DNA of 64,000 bases, taken from Patellaria atrata CBS 101060. Lineage: Eukaryota. Numbering within the stretch: the stretch's first letter is position 1; each line of letters starts with the position of its first letter. The translations under genes were made by a program, and so were the position numbers. Below the pieces are notes generated by a model. That model worked only from the letters and a program-made list of their open reading frames with translations. It made no database searches and was not told where the DNA came from. Shown here one piece after another: positions 927-28,327 of this stretch. The stretch is from contig MU006096.1 in NCBI GenBank assembly GCA_010093705.1, positions 518,004-582,003 on the forward strand, read 5' to 3'.

Positions 927-2475
927 GAAAATGTAGGATTCGGGCTTCGAAATCCAGCCTTTAGAATAAGAGGTTCGCCGAAATCAATTACGATTCCCCC
1001 ATCAATCACTTAGGGTTTATTCTACCTATCTTCCTAGTTACGCTACTTAGGGGCCTCGAGCCTACGCAATCTCATGGTGTCGAGTTCCTAGGTGTAAAAT
1101 ATATTCCCGACTTTAGGAATTTTAACATTAGGAATTTCAACTTCAGGATTTACACTGGACGTTCAACGAATTATGTATTATTTCCTAATCCAGCTACTTA
1201 GGATCGCGTTTTCTTTCCACCATAAGATACGCCATAGAGACCCTCTCTAATTTCGACTTCAGGAATTCGGACTATAGGGTGAGACGTTCAACGAGATTGA
1301 ATGCGAACATCTGAATATGCAACTAAAGTCTATCTAAGGACTACCTTATATAACTTCCATGGTCCGGAATTAATGAAGTGTGGATGTAAATTTACATCCT
1401 ATTGTACCTATTCAATACCATCCAGTCTAAGGTTTCCCATCTCAAACATAATGCTGATTCTATGGTTTGGTGGATTGAGTACGAGACACGGAGTTGAATA
1501 CTAGTACTTATTCGAGGAGATCATATATAGGTTCTGGATCAGGAATTAGCCAGTTGCTTTCTATATATCCCCAGAATGAGTTCACTTCCACATTTCCCCA
1601 TATTCCCAAAGCTCTTGAAACTGGTGCTGATGTGATGAGACCTGCTACTGTTTTCTACCCGGTCCCACTGGGTCTCTATTATACCCCATAGGAGCTTACA
1701 ACCAAGTGAACCAATACTTTAAGGGTTAGTCATATGGGCAAAACAGAACTTTGGTGTCTTGACCTATACTCATACCGAGGATATCCTATTTCCCAATCAT
1801 TTTGTACGCATATTGGTTTCTTTCGACTTAAAAGTACGTTCTAGTCAGAAGATGCCATTTAGCTCTCCTTTTTAGTCGTAGAAATCCTCCTTATTTTTGT
1901 AACATTGTCCAGTTAATATCTCTTATCCTAGTTGGCGCATATTGTGCAGTGCTATCTGTGATATACTCTGTTAGTCCCACTTGGATCCAGTCACGCCATG
2001 GGACCGTTTGCGAGAAGTCTGATCAAAGCTGTAGATAGACTTATCTCTCAAATGACTTGCTCCCATATTTCAAATGATATGTTCTCTCAAACGTCATGCT
2101 TCAATTTTTCAAACGACATTCTCCAACCTCTAAACATCATACCCCGATTCACAAACCGATTCCAGGACGAAGACTCACCGGGAACGCGTGCACAAGAGAA
2201 TGTGGGGGCTCTGGGTCTAGTATGATATCAAGGAGAACATTTATCAAACGAATCTCAGGGATACATGCATGAAGTGTACCTGTTTCAGTTAACTCATGTT
2301 CAAGACTCTGCCCCTCCCTTGGACTTCATTTCTTCTAATTACCTATCAATCTGAGATCGTCTCACTTCACCGCTTTGAGATCTAACCAGCGTCGCTAAGG
2401 CGCAACCCATATCTTCATGAGATCTCATTCAACGTTCGATCTCGTCAAGGTTTAGCCCTCAATACTTATTCTGCG

Positions 2476-3696
2476 ATGTTCACTCTTTGGCAACCCAATA
2501 TGGATGTGAATCATGATTCCACAGCTGATTCTCAACCTCCCCGAAAGAAAGTATGCCGCAACAAACCTAACACGCTAGTCAAATCCTTTGAAGATGCGGC
2601 GGAATCTATACGGACTCATATTGATAAGATGCACAAAGCGAAGGATCCGGCTCGAGAGCTCACGATTCTGAGGATCGTCTAAAGGAAGCGAAAACCGATT
2701 TTGCGACTCTCATAGCACCTTTGACGTCGCTTTTTGACGAGGTTTAACCTTTGCATCAAGGAGAATTAGGCATACCGAGAGAGATTCAGAAGCCTTTGTC
2801 AGAAATTGCCAATTCGCTTCACAAACTATATGGATCCAAAACTACCTCTCGTAAAATACTGTTCTTGGTATACAAATTAGCGAAATGGGACATCCCGCTC
2901 CATCCGAATTATCATAAGGATTTGAAAGAGACAATGGAGAAAAGTACATCTGGGAAGCGTCATTGAGAATTCATTTTCACTAACAGATTCTTTCGGAAAC
3001 TCGCCAGTATATCGAAAAGGAACAATCCCCGGATCACTCCTCAGCTATTATTCCAGATCCGTCTCTTAACCCGGCTCAATGTCCGACTACTATCTCCAAC
3101 GCCCAAGTCAACTCTACATATGAAATAAGAGAAATTCCAAGAACCTATAGCGGGAGCGCAAGACGAGTATTACTAACTCTCCAACGAAATCCGTCAATCT
3201 CTGGGGCTTATAGGAGTCTATAATATCAAAATTGAGGTTGCTCTCTGAGAAGAATGGGGATGGATTATGGGACGACGGAAAACAAGCTGGCATTCAAAAG
3301 ATAACAAGCATGTGAGTATCGTGCTTAGGAGCATAAGTGGCAGACGCAAAACGTACCGTCGGTATATAGACAGTAGACGATCATTTAGCGAAGAGTTACT
3401 CCATATGCACAAAGAAAAGAGTACTATAGATACTCTTGCTAGCATAGGAACAGATTTGTACCTTCACGGTGATACTGGGATGTTCTGTTGGGATGCTTAT
3501 TGACGAAGAAACGAGCACGAAGGGCAAGGATTCCTCTTGTCATTGCTTAGGATATACTCCTTTGAGTCTTGTTGCTTTGGCTGGTTCTACTGAGTCGATC
3601 GGGACTACTGACATGGCTGCTGGTGCCATGGATAAAGCACAATTGATGTATCTAAAGCAAAAGCATACTCTGGACTTTAGGCCTCAAGCTAGATAA
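2476..3696 (+). pseudogene. Possible decayed gene with ankyrin-like fragments
   Basis: A chain of short same-strand ORFs broken by stops and frameshifts. 3' pieces read GYTPLSLVALAGSTES...MAAGA and TIDTLASIGTDLY, resembling ankyrin repeats. No intact model could be built. Confidence 0.3.
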
Positions 3697-4295
3697 TAAT
3701 CCTCTACGAGAACTGGTTGATTTCTTCAAACCCCGTTCGCTTATGTCAGCTTCTCAGTCACAGAGTCGTTATTTTCGAACGTTCCATTGTTCACAGTATG
3801 ATTCACAAGAGGAGTAGTCGGTACTATTCCGGGCAAAAGTGCTGGAGGAAGAGGATATGTTGAGGCGATGTATACTCTGTCAGATTTGAGTACCGGTTTC
3901 CTTGTCGTGTCGTTTTCCTACTGTATATACACTCGACCCAGGAGCGGATTCGGACTACACCTGAAAGGAAAAGCGAATTCTATGAAGGAGCCCCTACAGT
4001 ACCGCGAGATTGACCGCACAGTGAATTGAAATTGACAATACACTGGAATCAACAGACTAATCGTAGTTACAGAGTATGCGTAAAGAGGGGGAAGGATGTC
4101 GACCGGGACACCGGAAGGAGCAGGTAAGAAGGTACTGTACTTACGACCATCCGGGATGGAGTTTGTGGACATATTATTGAAACAAGTAGGGTAGCGGAAG
4201 TAAGTCTAACAAGGCATCCAGCGCTCACATGCCAGCCAAAACTTTCAACGACCAGAAACGGGTTTGGTAATTCTAACACTTACTACTTGCTTCTG

Positions 4296-5281
4296 CTACC
4301 CCTTGACAACCTTGCTAACTTTGTATTCCACCGTGATCTTGCCGTCCTCAAAGATGAAACGGCCTGCAGCGACAAAAACCATGGTCTCGAGGGACTTAAA
4401 CTTAGAAGAACCGGTCTAACATCATAAGTATACTTTCAGCTTTGGAATGATGATACATACCTCAAATTGGAAAGTCACGACTATACATTTAATTTAGTGA
4501 GCGCGAGGATTAGACACCAGAACAGATCACATACAGGAGTCCCCCCAAGGAGTTGTTTCTGCATCCGATGAACCTGTGAGTACTTTGACTACTGCAGGAG
4601 TCAATACGACATTTCCCTGATAATACATGGCCAGAAGCTTTTACGATTAGTAAGAGAGAGATCCGTCAGAGTCTTAGAAAAGACAAGGTACATACTGCGC
4701 CGTCCTTGTCCCTATAGTAGATGGAATCAGCTTATATTGAACCACTGATCAGATAATATTCTTTACCTCAGTTGAGACCGAACATCAAGTCGCATATGTT
4801 CACCAGATGCATCGTTATGTATATAATCGTAACCGACACCATGTCTACCGATATCAACACACGTGAACGGCCTTGGTTAAATGAAAACGGGCGAGTAGAC
4901 GTACAATTCGGCTTCAATTGCAGGTTCAAACCCTGGCTCAGACTTGACTGTGCCTCCCACCATGGGCTGAAGTATATTTAGATTATAGCTCATAGAAAAT
5001 ACCTTACCCGAGTATTCGCAGCTGCATATATACTTTTACCATTGGAATGTAGCGAGATTTAACCTACCACAACAGACAACGGAGTCCCCTTGGATGCAGA
5101 ACCTTGATTCTTTCAGCTACAGCCGTCTAACGAGGTAATCATCTAAGTATTTGCTTACCAATTTGAAAGGGAGCATCGATCAAGACCTACAGCCGTGTCA
5201 AGTCTCGATATATGAAAGATTCGAAAAATCAAACCCTACCCTGACTGTAAAAGCCGGTTGAAGAGCAGGATAGTCTGTCAT
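4296..5281 (-). CDS. DUF3237 (UPF0311) family protein, ~167 aa, 9 exons
   Basis: Manual splicing across 8 GT-AG introns gives MTDYPALQPAFTVRVLIDAPFQIGSASKGTPLSVVPMVGGTVKSEPGFEPAIEAELHGVGYDYIHNDASGEHMRLDVRSQLRDKDGALLAMYYQGNVVLTPAVVKVLTGSSDAETTPWGDSFVTFQFETGSSKFKSLETMVFVAAGRFIFEDGKITVEYKVSKVVKG*. The motifs GGTV, GxDYI...RLD, FETG and FVxxGRF are typical of DUF3237. Confidence 0.88.
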
Positions 5282-6708
5282 CACGAAGGTTGTACAATCT
5301 TTCTATAATTCGATCTACCCCTGAAACTGGAAAATAGTGATACAATGCTTAAAGACAGATAGACGGACAAATAAGTATATACTGATATATATAGAGGATG
5401 CGGAACATTGAAGAATGTCGAAAATTGGGTCATGTCGTTGAGTGATTTCTCATCATCCCCGCCTCCAAATTCTACTTAGCCTCGAACCTTTTCCCCCTTT
5501 TCTCCGAACCTACATTATTAAGCCTCCCTCCGAAAACTGGGAAAGACCAACGCGTCTACTCCGCAATTCATACACCTCATCAGACGGAAGGGATTCGGTC
5601 AGGAACAGGCAAAGATGACTCTCTAGAACTGGTGCGGAAAAACGACTACGTTGCTCAACATTTATCGATGATTGTACTGCAACCGTCCCTGTAGTCCTTC
5701 CAGAAGCAGGGAAAGAAACATGCAGCTATAGTCTCACTATCGCTAGAAACAACATATTCTTCCCGTTAGCAGAAGAGCTACCTACTCATCCACGATCTTT
5801 TTAGACGTCCGGTCTTCAACTAGCATGCTCTAGGTTTCCTGCGCTCGTGGAATTTGCATCTTTCTGCATGGTTGGACTATTACTTCGTTCCTCTAGTCTT
5901 TACAACCCGTGGTTCCGCTCCCATAGTCATACCACTGATCGAGAGGGGATAAATGAAGAGAATAGAAGGAGAGAAGTAGGTGCCTTTACAGTACTTCTAA
6001 CTTAGCATGAACCGAAATATTCAGAATGACAACTGGAATCGGCAACTCATCCCAGCATACTGCGTTTTCAGGTAGGCTTTTCTTCGTATGATTTCAATAC
6101 TCTCACCAAGCATCTCGCTTGAAGGAATCAAACTTCCTAGATATTCCCCCTCCAAGACGTTATAATTCCTAGTCTCACCCTAGAGTTTCACGGAAGGGCC
6201 GAAAAGTGAATACGCTTCCAAATCCCTTGCTAGAAATGCCGGGACCAGGCCGTAGAGCCGATCAGGACGATCTGTCAGGGGAGTATCTGACCCCTTTCCG
6301 TGTCAGCGTCAACCTTTGCATCTCGAGGGAGGATTCAAAGCGTTGGATTAAAGTTTCGTCCAAGAGGGTTCTAAGCTCCCCCGGATCTCTAGCTGATTGA
6401 TACCCAATAGAACCGTATGATAGATTCCATGATCGCGGAAGCGAGTAATCGAGGTCCAGATCGCGGAAGCGTACTAGTCATGGTGACGATGGCGCGTTTT
6501 CTTCCGTTGATAATCTACCTTAGGTTTGAGTTTTGCTAACGTCGTGCCCAATCGTTCCTCATTCTTGACATTTAACACCTTAACTTCTCAGTCACAAATT
6601 TTGTTTCCCTATCTGATCTAAGGATCTTTTCTTTCCTTGTTCTTTTCCTCATTCCTTCGTATACTGCAATTCTTTCTTTTCAACCCGGTCCTCTACTACA
6701 GACCCGTT

Positions 6709-19515: not shown

Positions 19516-21893
19516 TTGGCAAGAATGGCCACAGTTGTGGCAAGAGCTCAGGCCATACCAGCAAGATCTGGTACCCCGCCTCCGCATCTTACTCTAAATA
19601 CATCGGTTAGAGGTACGCCTGCCGCCGTGCCGAACAAACATCTTCCAGTCTGTACTCCAGGCCCAAAGCCATCGTCAAGAGGACTTGAAACTCCTCCAGC
19701 ATCACCTCCCATCAAAAATGTAGCCCTCGAAGCATCTTCCGTTCTGCAAGCGGTCGATCAATTTCAAACGGTTGTCGGAGAGCCATCAGTTTACTCCATC
19801 GATGCAGCTACAGTTGCAAAGGCCGTGGAGCACATGGCTACACAGGCACTGCCTGATCCAAAACAGGTGTTTCCATGGCTCCACGGTCTTCATGCCGAAA
19901 ACCAGATCCAGCTTGCCTTCTTTGTCGCCCGTCGACGATCATTGAGAAAGGTACCAAAATGCATTCGAGGAATTACCATCGTGAAGGCTGGTGGAGACTT
20001 GACCCATTCGAAATTAAAGGGTGCTATTGCTCCCGAAGAGTTGCTCTTTGCTACCAACGATGAGAAAGAGACTGCCCGCTTTCTTGAAATCGACCCAAAG
20101 GATGGCTTCTCCGTCCGAAACTTTCAGATCCAGACTTGTAAGATGGCAACCGTGTCTGATATCATTGTATACGGTGACGAGCAGACTCCCAAGGAAGAGG
20201 TGTTGAAATTGGCTCAAAAGATCGCAAAGGCGCAAAAAGCTTGGAAAGTAAAAGTTCAAGTACCAGCCGGAGAGACTCAATCTTTCAATACGTTCGTTGT
20301 AAAAGGTATGATGATAGATTCTAACTTGGGTTGTCGAGATCCTTTTTCTCACTCGGCCCTTGGTTCGATATCGCTGACAGTTAATAAGATCCGTTCTCCA
20401 AGTTCGAGTATGATTACGATGAACTCGTTGCCTTAGACTCTGAAGGCTGTTTAACCGGCAAGGTTACGGATTTCTGTGAGTAAAGTATAGTCTATTATTA
20501 CCTAGTATATACTGACCAACTCAGTCTACTGGGAAAGACTGGAGATGTGTACCATGTCCGAGGCATCCGAAATTAGTAAGAATGTTTACCTTGGTCCAAC
20601 ACCTGATCCGACGTTGAGCGTGGAAACCGGACAAAAACTTTTAGAATTTGATATTCTTATTGAAGCGAGTGACCTAGCTCAGGTACCGGATTCCAGATCC
20701 CTTAAAGCTCTTAGACGGGTTTTGAACGACGATGACCATCCGGTTCTTCAGATTGAGTTTCCCTCTTCTGGGAGCATCATGCCCCCAACATGGTCTCAGG
20801 CGGAGGTTGATGGGTTGATGGAAACTTGTCAATGGATTTACCAATTTGCGAATCCGAATGACCCTGCTCGTGACTCTGATGTTGACAGTGACGGAGATAG
20901 CGTCATGGGACCTCTTACCACTCAACCGCAAAAGGTTTTGATTCATTGCTCGGATGGCTATACCGAAAGCTCTCTGCTTGGATTGACGTACTTCATGTAT
21001 GCGGAAGGTCTTCCGGTTCATGAAGCATGGGTACGACTTCATCGGGACAAAAAGCGTAACTTCTTTGCATACCCGTCAGATGTTGCGCTTTTGACGAGTA
21101 TCCAACCTCGCATTCTTCAAGAATCACCCCGCTGGAAAGGTAGTATCCTCAATATTTCGGAGCCTGCATGGCTAGGGCGTATTGATGGAAGTCTTCCCAG
21201 CCGGATCTTGCCTTATATGTACCTGGGCAACCTGAACCACGCCAATAATCCGGAGTTACTGAAGGAATTGGGGATAACTAGAATACTCAGCGTTGGAGAG
21301 TCCATAACTTGGCCTAAGGATTTGACAGACAAGTGGTCTGCGGACCGGCTTCTCTACATCGACCGCGTGCAGGACAATGGGGTCGATCCTCTTACTGACG
21401 AATTCGAACGCTGTTTAAAATTTATAGGTATCGTCTCGTCCTACTACTTTTTGAGTCTTCTTTGGTGTGCTAACGAGGATCACAGGTCAGGGTAAGCGTG
21501 ATGGTACCGCTACTCTTGTACACTGCCGTGTAGGAGTCTCCCGCTCTGCGACGATTTGCATAGCGGAGGTAATGAAAGAGCTGGGGCTATCATTTCCCAG
21601 AGCTTAGTACGTGCCGCCACTGGAATGTTTTATCTGTGACATACTGAACTTAGTAGTTGTTTCGTTCGCGCAAGACGCCTTAATGTTATCATTCAACCAC
21701 ATCTTCGATTTACGTACGTTATTACTTTCGACTCCAGTGTACTTCCAGAGCTGACAGCTATTGTAGATATGAGCTTCTTAAATGGGAGGAGTTTCAAAAT
21801 CAGCAGCGTGGCCAACCCCTTCGCCGTGAGCTCGAATGGGCTACTGTTGCTCGTGAGATTGCTCTGATGAATAAACCTTATTCACGACAATGA
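19516..21893 (+). CDS. PPS1: Dual-specificity protein phosphatase Pps1, 5 introns
   Basis: VFPWLHGLH..N..Q..FF, FSVRNFQIQ, first phosphatase-like motif HCSDGYTESS, GSLPSRILPYMYLGNLNHA, catalytic HCRVGVSRSA, C-terminal RRLNVIIQPHLRF..ELLKWEE. Confidence 0.93.
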
Positions 21894-23777: not shown

Positions 23778-25027
23778 ATGAGTCCTACTGATCATTCCCC
23801 CGCACTCTCCAAGCCCGAAGCCGAAGCCCTCCTCCCCCGTTTCAAGCTCGGCAGACTGCTCAATCAAGGTACTCCATTCCCGAATCGCGCGCACCGTAGC
23901 TCACCGAACAGTCTCCAGACCAAGTGGGCCGGCGAATCGTTCTTCAAGGGACCATCGACGATGAGCCCGCACTGCTGCTGGCCGAGCGAGCCGCCTTCCC
24001 CGCCGACGCAACGCATCTAGCCTACTTCGCGAGCGCGCTGGAGAACGTCAAGAATCTGGGCGCCAACGACATCTATTTCTGGTATTTGGCCTCGACCGCG
24101 CACTCGTCTGGAAATAGGAGAGAGGGGGAAGGTGAGGGGGACAAGCTGCAACCACCGGACCTCAAGATCAATCTGATTTACCCTTGTTTGCCGCAGCATG
24201 TTAAGAAATACACGCCGCAGGGGTTGAGGGTCGTGACTGAGACGCCCGAGGTCTATGAGAGGTGGATCAGGCCGTACTATGAGCGGAAGAGGGACAAGGG
24301 GCAGGTTAACTGGGTGTGGAATATTCTGGAGGGTAAGACGGAGCAGGAGGATGTGATGTATAGGGAGAGTGGGGAGGAGGGCTTTGTAGTGTTGCCGGAT
24401 TTGTGAGTTAATCCCGTCATTGATCTGGCCTAGGATTGTGAGTGAAAAGGTATAGGGATGGCGCTAACCGGGGGAATCGTCATAGGAACTGGGATCGCAA
24501 AACGATGGAAACCCTTCATGTCCTCGGCATCGTTGAGAGGAGGGACATTTGGTCCGTCCGGGATCTCAAGAAGAAACATATTGTTTGGTTGAAGCACATG
24601 CGCGATAAGTTCCTCGATGCGGTCGTGAAATTGTATCCTGATATCGAACAGGATCAGCTGAAGCTTTACGTTCACTGTAAGTCTTGTCTATTCGCGGTGC
24701 CTCGAACTTTCCTCATGATCCATATGGTCCACTTCCATTGCTGAACCTTTGATAGACCAACCCACATACTACCACTTCCACGTTCACATAGTCCATGTCG
24801 CGCTTGATGCTGGGGCTACGCAAGCTGTAGGCAAAGCGATCGGCCTCGACAGCATCATCGCCCAAATAGAGACAATGGATCCTGGTAGCAAAGGCGACGA
24901 GGCCGGCATTGCTGATGTGAGTTTGACTTATCATGTTGGCGAACAGACGGAGTTGTGGACGGAGATTTTCAGCGTTTTAAAGGAGAAGAGGGAACCGTAT
25001 GATGGTCAAAATGTGGGAGGGAGTTAG
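23778..25027 (+). CDS. DCS1: m7GpppX scavenger decapping enzyme (DcpS), 3 introns
   Basis: LKINLIYP...HVKKY, VTETPE, WVWNILEGKTE, LPDLNWD, SVRDL, and HIT-type YVHYQPTYYHFHVH after splicing. Confidence 0.95.
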
Positions 25028-25149
25028 AATTTATATTTTGAGACGCTGTGGTATAATCATAGCATCTTATAGAGAATGGAGATATTTACATTTCCGTAAC
25101 TTACAAAACTATTCCTGAAATTTGGGCATAGGTGTCAGTTTCTAGCTCT

Positions 25150-25955
25150 AACCACACGTTTGCTTTCATTTCATTATTAGCTACAATTTGAGGACTGCTT
25201 TGAATGCGGATAACCCAAAGCTAATGCCTTGCTATTTGGTAACCCTATCGAAGTACCTTTACCCAGGCGTATCTACAACTTGATAGATTAATTGGGTGGC
25301 CCATCATCGGAGGGAAAAGTGGCCTGTTCAAGCCGCACTTTTGACCCACGTTGTTCTCTATTTCAAATCGCTTTTGAACCTCAAGCATCATTTTCTAACA
25401 GTAACTCAAACTCACTTTTTGTAAGATTCAAGTACATTGTTCCCATAGGGTCACTCAGGGCTGTCCTTCCGGCGTAGTCCTTGGTCTCTATTCAGCGTTG
25501 TCGTTCCCACTCCGCTTGGTCCTTGGTGTGGTGTCACCGGGCCGGTTGTCAGGGGCAACCGGGGCCTTAGACACCACACTTCTTTAATATACCTTATCCT
25601 CATTCTTCTTCTTTACATATTCTTCTTTTCTTTTTCAATATGCATTTATCCTTTCCCTTGAAATCCAGTTTTCTTGACAGCAAATCTTCTTCCCGAGCTT
25701 CGCCATACACTCAAGCAGTTAAGTACTTCAAGCAATTTTTTCCAAAAGTTCAGGCTTACGACTTGACCCGCGTGGGCTCAACGACTGAGAGTTATGAGCG
25801 CTAGCTACCATACTCTCGCTGTAAATTCCACAAACGTCATCTTTGATTTAGATTTATTATTTAGATTTATGCACCATTGGTCGAAAGACCGGGACCTGGG
25901 TGCCTTGTGCATTGGCCCAGGTGAAGACGGGTGGGTCCGTCTTCCCTTTTTTTTT
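25150..25955 (+). ncRNA. Candidate telomerase RNA (TER); 5' end approximate
   Basis: Template-like TAACCCTA at 25240-25247; enclosing helices 25188-25198/25474-25484 and 25208-25216/25458-25466; pseudoknot candidate 25370-25431; P6-like 25874-25899 and P6.1-like GTGC-CTTGT-GCAT 25900-25912; terminal hairpin 25923-25944; T9 tract directly followed by GTAAGT, then a branch site with no nearby AG. No long ORF. Confidence 0.6.
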
Positions 25956-26784
25956 GTAAGTCTTGACCCCTTTCACACATTGAAGGCCGGCTAACTTTTC
26001 AACACACATGACGCTTCTATGGACGGATGTACTTTGCTTGACAGTTATTGTGGTGGGAACTGGAACTTAGTTAGAGTAGATAGAGAAATCAAAGCTTTGG
26101 ATGAAATAGCGTCTTCTATACTTTCATACAATTCTCTTTTTCGTGATAAAACAACGTTGCTTGGTGTTGAGGTTGGCATGGTTGGGTTGAGGTCTGAACA
26201 GAGTCACGACTAGTTTAGATCTAACCGATATGGTGTGCGATGCTTATTAATAAGGGCAACCTTCTATCTACCTTTCAGGTTATATTCACCTTTCCACCTA
26301 TCCACTTGCAAATGTATGCTTTCGTTCCAATGATAATAAGGAGTTTCCAAGCTCAGTTCAATCAGTACTAATGTTCTGAGTTTCCTTAACATACCACTTC
26401 CTTCCTTACCGCGATTTTCTTAGAACTGGTTCGACCGCCGCTTCCTGTCATCCTTTTCATGAAACAACTATTTTAATAACTTTACAAGCCAGGAGAAAAC
26501 TTTTGAACTAGAACTTTGATGCAGAATCCGATGATTTTGTGTTCTTTAGCAAGCGCTATAACAAGCCCTTTAATATCACCACCGAAACCGATTAATTAAC
26601 CATACTTTATTTGACTTGGCACATGCAAATTCCCGTGAAAGAGCCAGGTATACACAACTTAAGACAACGTAGATCAGATCATTACGTCGTCCTTTAAAAC
26701 TACGCATTCGCCATGGGAGATTTCAATTGCTGTAATAATAGTATTGCAATGGAAACGGCTTTTGATGTAACCTAGGATATAGCC

Positions 26785-28327
26785 ATGATGTTGTTCCCTT
26801 CTTGTCGCATACTCATTTCCCTTCTCACTTTCTTTTTGATACGACAAGCGCATTCGAAACCGACTACTTCAAGTCATTTTGAATGGCTCCAAAGATGCCT
26901 CGCACGCACCCAACTCTCCTTCTCTACAAATAGCACGGGCGTCTGCTCTCGGCCATGTGGTTTGATTCCATTTACAGACTATCTTCCCTGGACCCACCAG
27001 CCCGTGTGCGTCAAAGCACGTAGCGAGGAAGATCAACGGGAACATAGCTTTTGTCTGTATACGAACGCAGACTTTCGAGATGGACGCGGATTTAGCATCA
27101 TCACCACGGCTGATGTTGGCACTTATATTTCTGAACAACCTATCATGTGGGATCGGGAGAGGTGGCGCAAGAAGACTATAACCTTTAAGGACCAGCCGTA
27201 CAAGATGGAGGATATGGCTGAAAGAGGACTCGGACTTCGCGCCAACCAGACTATTACTTACGGTCGGGTCTTCATGGAAAGTTCACCGACAATCGTCGTA
27301 ATTCGGTCCGCCTTGGATTTTATGACGAGGGAGCAGCGCCACTATATGTTCAGGCGTGCAATCAAGCAACTTCCAGTGAAGACGGGAAATATGATTCTCA
27401 AGTTAGCAAAAAGTATGGGAGGTGATGAGCTCGACGATGTGTTCAAGACGAACGGAATTGGACAAATCTACGGGGAAGATATCAGGCATCTTTCAATACT
27501 GCCAGAGGTAGCTGTACGCAATCATCATATTCTTTTGCTTTTATGATGTTCTGAACCATCTACTAATCGGTTGTATCAGCGGATCAATCACGATTGTCGT
27601 CCAAAGTAAGAGTCCCACTCATCCAGTTCTTCTAAATACTTACTGAAAACATGTAGCTCTGCATATCGCTTCGATGACACGACGCTTAAGCACGAAGTCT
27701 TCGCTATCCGTGACATCAAACCCGGCGAAGAAATAACGGTAACTTGTATGATTCCCCATAGATCCATTCGCCTTCCCCCTCTAATTTTGACCAGACGTTC
27801 CTCCCGAAATGCCTTCCGATATGCGCAACTCCTTACTTCGCAACCAATGGAACTTTGATTGCACTTGCTCCCTCTGTGCCGCCCAGGACTTCACCCTCGC
27901 AACCTCTGACACCCGTCTTCGCACAATCCAAGAATACGCCTCGGACCTTGCTTCCGTATCCAATGACCCCGAACTGTTTCTCGAAAAGGTAGAAAGAATT
28001 CTGGAACTATACGAGTTGGAGGATATTATCGCGCCAAAAGCAAGGTATCTGGAGCTCGCGGCATATGCGTGCAGTCAATTGGGCTTGGAGGCGGCGACGA
28101 AGAAATATGCGAAGAAAGCTTATGATATGTGGGATGTCATTGCCGGAAAGGATAGTTGGGAAAAAAAGGGTATGGGGGCGTTGTTGAGGGATCCAAAGGC
28201 GCATCCTAGCTGGAAGTATGGTCAGGGTGAAAAACAAAATGAGAGTGCTTCTGAAGACCCAACCGAGTTAGGGAACGGGAATGCTTCTGAGCTATTTAGT
28301 GAAGTTCTCGAGCCGACAAAGGAGTGA
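26785..28327 (+). CDS. SET-domain (Set5/SMYD-like) protein with N-terminal signal peptide, 3 introns
   Basis: RGLGLRAN (SET-N); spliced EVA|RINHDCRPN|SAYRFD...FAIRDIKPGEEITVT|Y; post-SET WNFDCTCSLC; TPR-like helical tail; hydrophobic leader MMLFPSCRILISLLTFFLIRQAHS. Confidence 0.88.

Follow-up and report, generated by a model that had tools for sequence, protein, structure and literature searches.

The window analyzed here is a 64,000-nucleotide (nt) stretch of Patellaria atrata CBS 101060 (contig MU006096.1), and the element in question is an intron-like cassette at 25923-26044 of its forward strand. To judge from its make-up, the cassette is a real, non-random 3'-end module in the style of fungal telomerase RNAs (TERs), in which a GC hairpin, a U9 tract, a consensus 5' splice site and a consensus branch site follow one another and no AG occurs for a long distance beyond the branch site (Table 1). 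Our tentative reading, in which we place limited confidence, is that the module may act by first-step-only splicing on an unannotated RNA polymerase II (Pol II) transcript that would be non-coding and not a canonical TER. Spliceosomal cleavage is so far known to make functional RNA 3' ends only in fungal TERs (PMC4299874).

A preliminary description of this DNA had reported a T9 run abutting GTAAGT, a branch site GCTAAC at 25990-25995 with the branch A at 25994, a CAC where a YAG would be expected, and a first AG about 50 nt past the branch A. Direct reading bore out each of these to the base. The T9 run is the only run of at least nine T on the + strand of the window; there are three on both strands together (128 kb of strand), one of which abuts GTAAGT. 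GTAAGT and GCTAAC occur 31 and 28 times in the window, and they form pairs 10-80 nt apart at three places, one being the cassette; in the other two pairs, AG lies 12 and 14 nt beyond the branch A. The heptamer GCUAACU of the cassette is also the branch motif conserved in Aspergillus TERs (PMC3603654). The terminal hairpin, which was absent from the preliminary description, was flagged by a simple terminator scan as a hairpin plus T-tail. An RNA polymerase III (Pol III) terminator made of this hairpin and T9 was rejected, since Pol III transcription would already have ended at T5-T6 runs further upstream and since it gives no account of the splice signals that adjoin the T-run. The hairpin, U9, perfect 5' splice site and perfect branch site together are not plausibly an accident.

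From the branch A it is 50 nt to the first AG (CUUUGCUUGACAG context), and the GT..AG unit measures 89 nt. A crude scan of the window for consensus 5' sites followed by NCTRAC gave 38 intron-like candidates, unvalidated as introns, with a median branch-A-to-AG distance of 17.5 nt; the distance was at most 31 nt in 30 of the 38 and at least 44 nt in eight, the cassette included. The AG-free run of 46 nt, taken alone, is mildly unusual (~0.06, estimated from base composition). The spacer folds with a minimum free energy of -3.7 kcal/mol (z = +0.65); with no stable fold, there is no structure that would shorten the distance between branch and AG.

These measurements bear on the possibility that 25956-26044 is an ordinary spliceosomal intron, fully removed from an unannotated long non-coding RNA or a very long untranslated region, in which splicing would use the first AG past the branch, or a weaker branch nearer to that AG, and the U-run and hairpin would be incidental. 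Such an intron would have GT and AG at its ends, a 5' site and a branch both of consensus type, a length of 89 nt and the 3' context UUGACAG, and in seven other window candidates, too, the AG follows the branch at a distance of at least 44 nt; the U9 tract at its exon end and the perfect 8-bp hairpin 2 nt upstream, however, would be very unlikely for an arbitrary intron. The strong branch is placed as for an intron of 55-65 nt, yet 46 nt without AG and without structure follow it, and the distance of 50 nt stands against at most 31 nt in 30 of the 38 window candidates. The 'exons' flanking the cassette contain stops in every frame, leaving no coding exon beside it. A sister intron could be marked by a second TTTTTGTAAG at 25416 and a second YTTGACAG at 25669-25680, but such repeats are expected by chance in 2 kb (estimate). 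We regard an ordinary intron as the main rival reading, somewhat less probable than the one we favor.

The second TTTTTGTAAG (25416-25425) and the second YTTGACAG repeat the boundary words of the 89-nt unit, and a 90-nt pyrimidine-rich tract (25585-25680) precedes the second boundary words. The words at 25416 and 25680 could bound another intron, of 260 nt, in this hypothetical transcript; alternatively, the tract could serve as a CT-rich promoter element. TATA-like sites lie at 25030-25060; an RNA starting near them would be ~0.9 kb long, and one starting near the CT-rich tract (25590-25640) would be ~0.3 kb long.

To compare the cassette with genuine TER 3' ends, metagenome contigs were scanned with the pattern T7-RTAAGT-N15-45-GCTAACT, which gave at least 118 loci, and flanks were taken for 80. 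Two of these loci with full upstream sequence, L003 and L078, are genuine TERs of Pezizomycotina: both have GGAACTTAACCCTAAG 2.0-2.2 kb upstream of the U-run, the template UAACCCUAA of the control TER genes lies in the context GGAACUUAACCCUAAG, which L003 and L078 have in common, and the pseudoknot part of Rfam model RF02462 (Telomerase_Asco; model positions 1282-1381) matched them with 21.6 and 47 bits, respectively. RF02462 reports only this pseudoknot part in the control TERs, and since L003 falls under the gathering score, such TER genes would be missed by default Rfam annotation. A block of ~50 nt is nearly identical in L003, L078, L117 and L099; its fold is a P5/P6/P6.1 junction in which GUC follows a P6.1 of 4 bp, in agreement with the description in PMC3592445. 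L082 and L109 nearly duplicate L078, and L114 nearly duplicates L117. These seven loci appear to be complete or partial TER genes (L003 at ~3500-6300 and L078 at ~3500-6500, both on the - strand). All seven have AUAAGU and an AG 6-8 nt beyond GCTAACT, and the control genes end in U7-10 followed by AUAAGU and GCUAACU; the Aspergillus TER 3' consensus is CGGC3-5U7-12 / AUAAGU / GCUAACU (PMC3603654).

The cassette contains the same 3' module of U-run, 5' splice site and GCUAACU. Its linker from the 5' splice site to the branch site is 28 nt, compared with 30-36 nt in validated TERs, and the 40 nt upstream of its U-run fold with -15.1 kcal/mol, compared with a median of -3.35 among the 114 listed pattern loci that have this much upstream sequence. 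Five of these 114 reach -14 kcal/mol or lower (L060, L099, L003, L052 and L050). Because three of the five (L060, L099 and L003) are TER loci, a hairpin beside the U-run is a feature of the TER module, which the cassette has in common with them. The intron +1 position, at 25956, is G in the cassette and A in every validated TER of the sample. The layout of a TER-type spliceosomal-cleavage signature, as proposed in the preliminary description, thus matches real TER 3' ends, while TER identity was not supported, given the G at +1, only ~930 nt of available sequence, and neither a core domain nor a template context.

Among the other pattern loci, L050 (~1760-3570, + strand), on a marine metagenome contig of 36% GC, has a G-start module with a GC hairpin of -15.2 kcal/mol, T7, GTAAGT and GCTAACT. 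Its AG lies 24 nt past GCTAACT, TAACCCTAA stands 1.7 kb upstream on the same strand, and it matched neither Rfam nor R1, a covariance model of the P5/P6/P6.1 junction that was built from four TER loci of unassigned class. L050 could be another G-type case. A family of loci with AUAAGU and a long AG-free stretch (L007, L022, L068, L079 and L081) was dropped as resembling bacterial coding DNA, and L047 and L021 were dropped as having neither template nor junction.

The TER core domains were sought in the sequence upstream of the cassette. RF02462 gave no match in 24800-26400 at E up to 10 and none in the whole window at the gathering score or at E up to 5, and the triple-helix pseudoknot domain (CGGUUUUUGAGGA...UUUUG.CCGU...GGAA.CAAA..CUAGUC) was not found by this model at the locus or in the window; the control basis for RF02462 is two TERs, one of them under the gathering score. 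R1, run with filters off over 24900-26300, reached at best 5.6 bits and detected no P6/P6.1 junction. Its maximum in the window was 14 bits (19823-19878, - strand); the seeds, as expected for the sequences that make up the model, score 37.6-82.4 bits. Five patterns that L003 and L078 have in common (template flank, junction, pseudoknot 3' strand and two other blocks) were also scanned as words: none matched at or close to the flagged region, and for two of them weak matches with 2-3 mismatches turned up elsewhere in the window. No match to GGAACTTAACCCTAAG, the template context of the control TERs, was found with up to 3 mismatches, and the L003/L078 context GGAACUUAACCCUAAG was likewise absent. 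The only template-like word, UAACCCUA (Table 1), has flanks unlike the TER template context and is one of 16 window matches with at most one mismatch, against 12.4 expected (p ~0.08 in 900 nt, estimate). Folding around this word and around pseudoknot candidates showed no excess over shuffles (z = -0.2 and +1.0). From the stop codon of the preceding gene (25027) to the end of the U-run (25955) there are 928 nt, which is below the published size range of Pezizomycotina TERs (1584-2425 nt; PMC3603654, PMC3592445). PMC3592445 describes the pseudoknot and P6/P6.1 core domains as highly conserved in 73 Pezizomycotina TERs identified with BLAST. That the upstream RNA is a canonical Pezizomycotina TER is not supported by its sequence.

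The cassette might still be the 3' end of the organism's own TER, a compact and divergent RNA at ~25060-25955 with UAACCCUA at 25240 as its template, in which loss of the 3' splice site would have replaced the AUAAGU block. The module is TER-like in every element save intron +1, which is A in all validated TER modules of the sample. An 8-nt template-like word stands ~700 nt upstream on the same strand, but a word of this length has the chance estimate given above, and the regions of this word and of the pseudoknot candidates fold no better than shuffles. The locus is intergenic and non-coding, one TER is needed per genome, and such modules are not known from any other RNA. PMC4299874 considers a block of this kind by an AG-to-AC 3' site possible in principle. 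RF02462, though, matched both full-length controls and nothing at the locus (E up to 10, 1.6 kb) or in the window, R1 remained at or below 5.6 bits, the words for template flank, junction and pseudoknot that the controls have in common had no counterpart at or close to the flagged region, both cores are highly conserved in the 73 TERs (PMC3592445), and ~930 nt compares with 1584-2425 nt published. We consider a compact TER quite improbable.

Several candidates for TER elements were rejected. GGGACCU...GUCU.CCC (~25892-25946) was rejected as a junction owing to the competing perfect 8-bp hairpin and a low R1 score, and U-run/A-run pairings at 25311-25430 were rejected as a pseudoknot owing to their topology. 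The loop CUUGU of the 25895-25921 hairpin fits the P6.1 loop consensus NUNGN (PMC3592445), and about one such hairpin per 900 nt is expected by chance (estimate). Weak Rfam matches at the locus (RsaD, Histone3, mir-1249 and NPPA-AS1_3) were far under their gathering scores and were treated as noise. The 13-mer ATCAAAGCTTTGG at 26086-26098 equals 13 bases of the L003 junction consensus and is similar in sequence to the pseudoknot 3' strand GGAAUCAAAG. It was rejected as a TER core, being downstream of the cassette, containing the 10-nt palindrome CAAAGCTTTG, unable to form P6.1 and scored by no model.

The cassette lies within a 1.76-kb intergenic gap between the end of the gene for DcpS, the scavenger mRNA decapping enzyme, and the start of the next gene at 26785. 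DcpS was identified by a Pfam match (PF05652, E 9.3e-26). Its 168-amino acid (aa) exon matches, at 100% identity, a 345-aa protein that the database assigns to Patellaria atrata CBS 101060, and the next best of 291 matches are ~60-65% identical and mostly from Dothideomycetes. Its stop was placed at 25025-25027 because the C-terminus of the 345-aa protein, ...GQNVGGS, matches the frame ending at 25027. The two largest exons of the downstream gene had no Pfam match, and the motif RINHDCRPN in a small exon suggests a possible SET-type domain. The longest stop-to-stop open reading frame (ORF) in the gap (25030-26785) is 77 aa. A 54-aa ORF starting with ATG (25640-25801) had no identical database entry; against 1.84 billion representative proteins it gave a single match, to a repeat protein of 956 aa (E = 6.6e-5), which was judged to be at chance level. 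A coding explanation was also rejected: among spliced ORFs traced by hand, none had a start codon and an open frame across both exons. On these ORF results, the gap was treated as non-coding. Elsewhere in the window, a tRNA-Leu gene with anticodon TAG (471-558, + strand; ARAGORN) scored 57 bits against RF00005, the sole Rfam family above its gathering score in the window.

Table 1. Positions of the cassette elements and neighboring features in the window
Feature	Position	Strand	Remarks
U9 tract (Sm/Lsm-type U-run)	25947-25955	+	direct reading; predicted 3' end of released 5' exon
5' splice site GTAAGT/GUAAGU, consensus	25956-25961	+	direct reading; adjoins T9
Branch site GCTAACT/GCUAACU	25990-25996	+	branch A at 25994; 28 nt past the 5' splice site
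CAACACAC	26000-26007	+	CAC at 26003-26005, where real TER introns carry YAG
Spacer, AG-free, unstructured	25997-26042	+	46 nt without AG, direct reading
First AG	26043-26044	+	context UUGACAG/U (cut after AG); candidate distal 3' splice site
Terminal GC hairpin GAAGACGG-GUGGGU-CCGUCUUC	25923-25944	+	perfect 8 bp; 2 nt upstream of the U-run
Hairpin GGUC-GAAA-GACC, perfect	25879-25890	+	folding
Hairpin CCUGGG...CCCAGG, perfect	25895-25921	+	encloses a 4-bp stem, loop CUUGU
GC-richer segment with long hairpins	25441-25590	+	10-bp arms GTGTGGTGTC/GACACCACAC at 25526-25579
Template-like word UAACCCUA	25240-25247	+	8 nt, one repeat plus 2 nt; weak
DcpS gene	23778-25027	+	three introns; stop TAG at 25025-25027
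Downstream gene	26785-28327	+	ATG at 26785; hydrophobic, signal-like N-terminus

A cassette with no current function was also considered, either motifs brought together by chance or a relic in decay, such as a duplicated TER 3'-end fragment that lacks A at +1 and the AG, or an intron of a dead gene. Each single motif is short, and the word TTTTGTAAGT followed by TCTAAC and a 97-nt AG-free stretch on the minus strand (25104, in or next to the DcpS 3' end) shows that look-alikes arise; hairpin, U9, GUAAGU and GCUAACU at TER-like spacing, however, are far below the chance expectation for one window. A relic would account for a TER-like module alongside missing TER cores, but all four elements are intact and undecayed. 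An assembly or relic of this kind seems improbable to us.

The minus-strand look-alike itself spans 25020-25108, with TTTTGTAAGT at 25108-25099 and TCTAAC across the region of the DcpS stop codon; AG first occurs 97 nt beyond the branch A, and the 10-bp word is a perfect inverted repeat of 25952-25961. The look-alike is probably due to chance but could mark an antisense transcript. The inverted repeat ACTTACAAAA/TTTTGTAAGT (25099/25952) was rejected as a pair of transposon ends, being at chance level for 2 kb and having no target duplication.

We favor a TER-style module on a non-canonical RNA because an arbitrary intron rarely has a U9 tract and a perfect hairpin, and a TER rarely lacks both cores, has G at +1 and is shorter than 1 kb. 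We infer transcription of the locus, first-step-only catalysis, an RNA end at ~25955 and protein binding. In the proposed mechanism, the spliceosome would assemble on GUAAGU (25956) and the branch site GCUAACU (25990), and the first transesterification would be carried out at the cassette. Exon ligation would be slow because no AG occurs for 46 nt past the branch motif and the spacer is unstructured, the intermediates would be discarded after step 1, and the freed 5' exon would end in hairpin-CC-U9, suited to Sm/Lsm binding and protection. By analogy with the known systems, it is plausible that the cassette acts like spliceosomal cleavage. In S. pombe TER1, first-step-only splicing goes with a canonical 5' site, full complementarity of the branch to U2 and a long distance from branch to 3' splice site, after which the intermediates are discarded and the 5' exon is freed (PMC4299874). 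This long distance, invoked in the preliminary description, was confirmed, and an AUAAGU 5' site in fungal TERs was confirmed for Aspergilli, with AUACGU in A. nidulans (PMC4299874, PMC3603654). The CAC 3' site given in the preliminary description for the TER of Mycosphaerella graminicola could not be confirmed; the word 'splice' does not occur in the available part of PMC3592445. An A at intron +1 blocks step 2, and the change A1G gives full splicing in the A. niger TER intron (PMC4299874). With G at +1, the Aspergillus/Neurospora block is inapplicable to the cassette, and the known way to halt after step 1 would be a long distance between branch and 3' splice site, as in S. pombe TER1 (PMC4299874).

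Several points weigh against first-step-only splicing on a non-TER transcript. Transcription of the locus is so far a prediction from its sequence. The module was read in one sequence, so that conservation forms no part of its basis, and the coincidence probabilities were estimated post hoc. The AG at 26043-26044 stands in a reasonable context (CUUUGCUUGACAG), 89 nt is a normal size for a fungal intron, and eight of the 38 candidates in the crude window set (cassette included) have a distance of at least 44 nt. The upstream 896 nt fold weakly overall (z = -1.55), and z approaches -2 only for the last 80 nt and for 25441-25590, with both strands alike (-2.19 on the + strand and -1.80 on the - strand for the latter segment). 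The branch sequence GGCUAAC, compared with UACUAAC, appears to match U2 only in part under the usual pairing rules. GGCUAACU fits the filamentous-fungal branch consensus and differs from UACUAAC at the first two positions. The apparently partial complementarity to U2 weakens the parallel with S. pombe. Finally, no non-telomerase RNA is known to gain a functional 3' end by spliceosomal cleavage (PMC4299874).

The same source leaves as a question whether RNAs besides TER use spliceosomal cleavage; it also reports that changing the 3' site from AG to AC blocks step 2, and whether this occurs naturally 'remains to be seen' (PMC4299874). The cassette locus is a concrete candidate for both matters, the users other than TER and a defective or absent 3' splice site as a natural block. 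The stronger claim is that a structured Dothideomycete non-coding RNA, with a hairpin-U9-5' splice site-branch module of its own and no use for a 3' splice site, would be the first RNA other than telomerase RNA to gain its functional 3' end by first-step-only splicing; this we consider somewhat unlikely. If true, it would be a natural variant with a missing or AC 3' site, as foreseen as possible by Kannan et al. 2015 (PMC4299874). Should the RNA prove to be the organism's TER, it would stand out among Pezizomycotina TERs as the smallest and most divergent by a wide margin and would be a further independent uncoupling of the two splicing steps, and if the cassette is simply spliced, the finding is an ordinary one.

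Compared with an ordinary short Pezizomycotina intron, the cassette is alike in its GT..AG boundaries, GUAAGU, CURAY-type branch and 89-nt length, and it differs in its branch-to-AG distance (50 nt vs. a median of 17.5), in the U9 exon end behind a terminator-like hairpin and in having no flanking coding exon. With the Aspergillus/N. crassa-type TER module, it shares a GC-rich terminal stem, a C-rich run, a U-run, an abutting 5' site and GCUAACU 23-36 nt further on (28 here). The introns of those TERs start with A and have AG 6-8 nt beyond GCUAACU, whereas the cassette starts with G and is AG-free for 46 nt, and those TERs carry a conserved pseudoknot and P6/P6.1 junction, whereas the cassette locus has neither.

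Among the papers listed on 'spliceosomal cleavage', titles and abstract openings named no RNA besides telomerase RNA that gains a functional 3' end in this way; the nearest reports concern spliceosome-mediated decay (PMC3792478) and a spliceosome-profiling preprint (10.1101/224170). In the spliceosome-mediated decay of non-intronic mRNAs such as budding yeast BDF2, first-step cleavage likewise takes place without productive ligation (PMC3792478). Its products are unstable and the outcome is down-regulation of an mRNA, whereas the hairpin-U9 end of the cassette seems stabilizing and there is no evident mRNA.

The cassette differs from S. pombe TER1 in that GGCUAAC is apparently not fully complementary to U2, the distance of ~50 nt is much longer, no template context, pseudoknot or P6/P6.1 lies upstream, and it is known from sequence alone. 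Like S. pombe TER1, the cassette has a canonical 5' splice site starting with G, which shares one base with a U-rich, Sm-type site, together with a long distance from branch to 3' splice site at which step 2 would stall, and its predicted product, as in S. pombe, is a released 5' exon.

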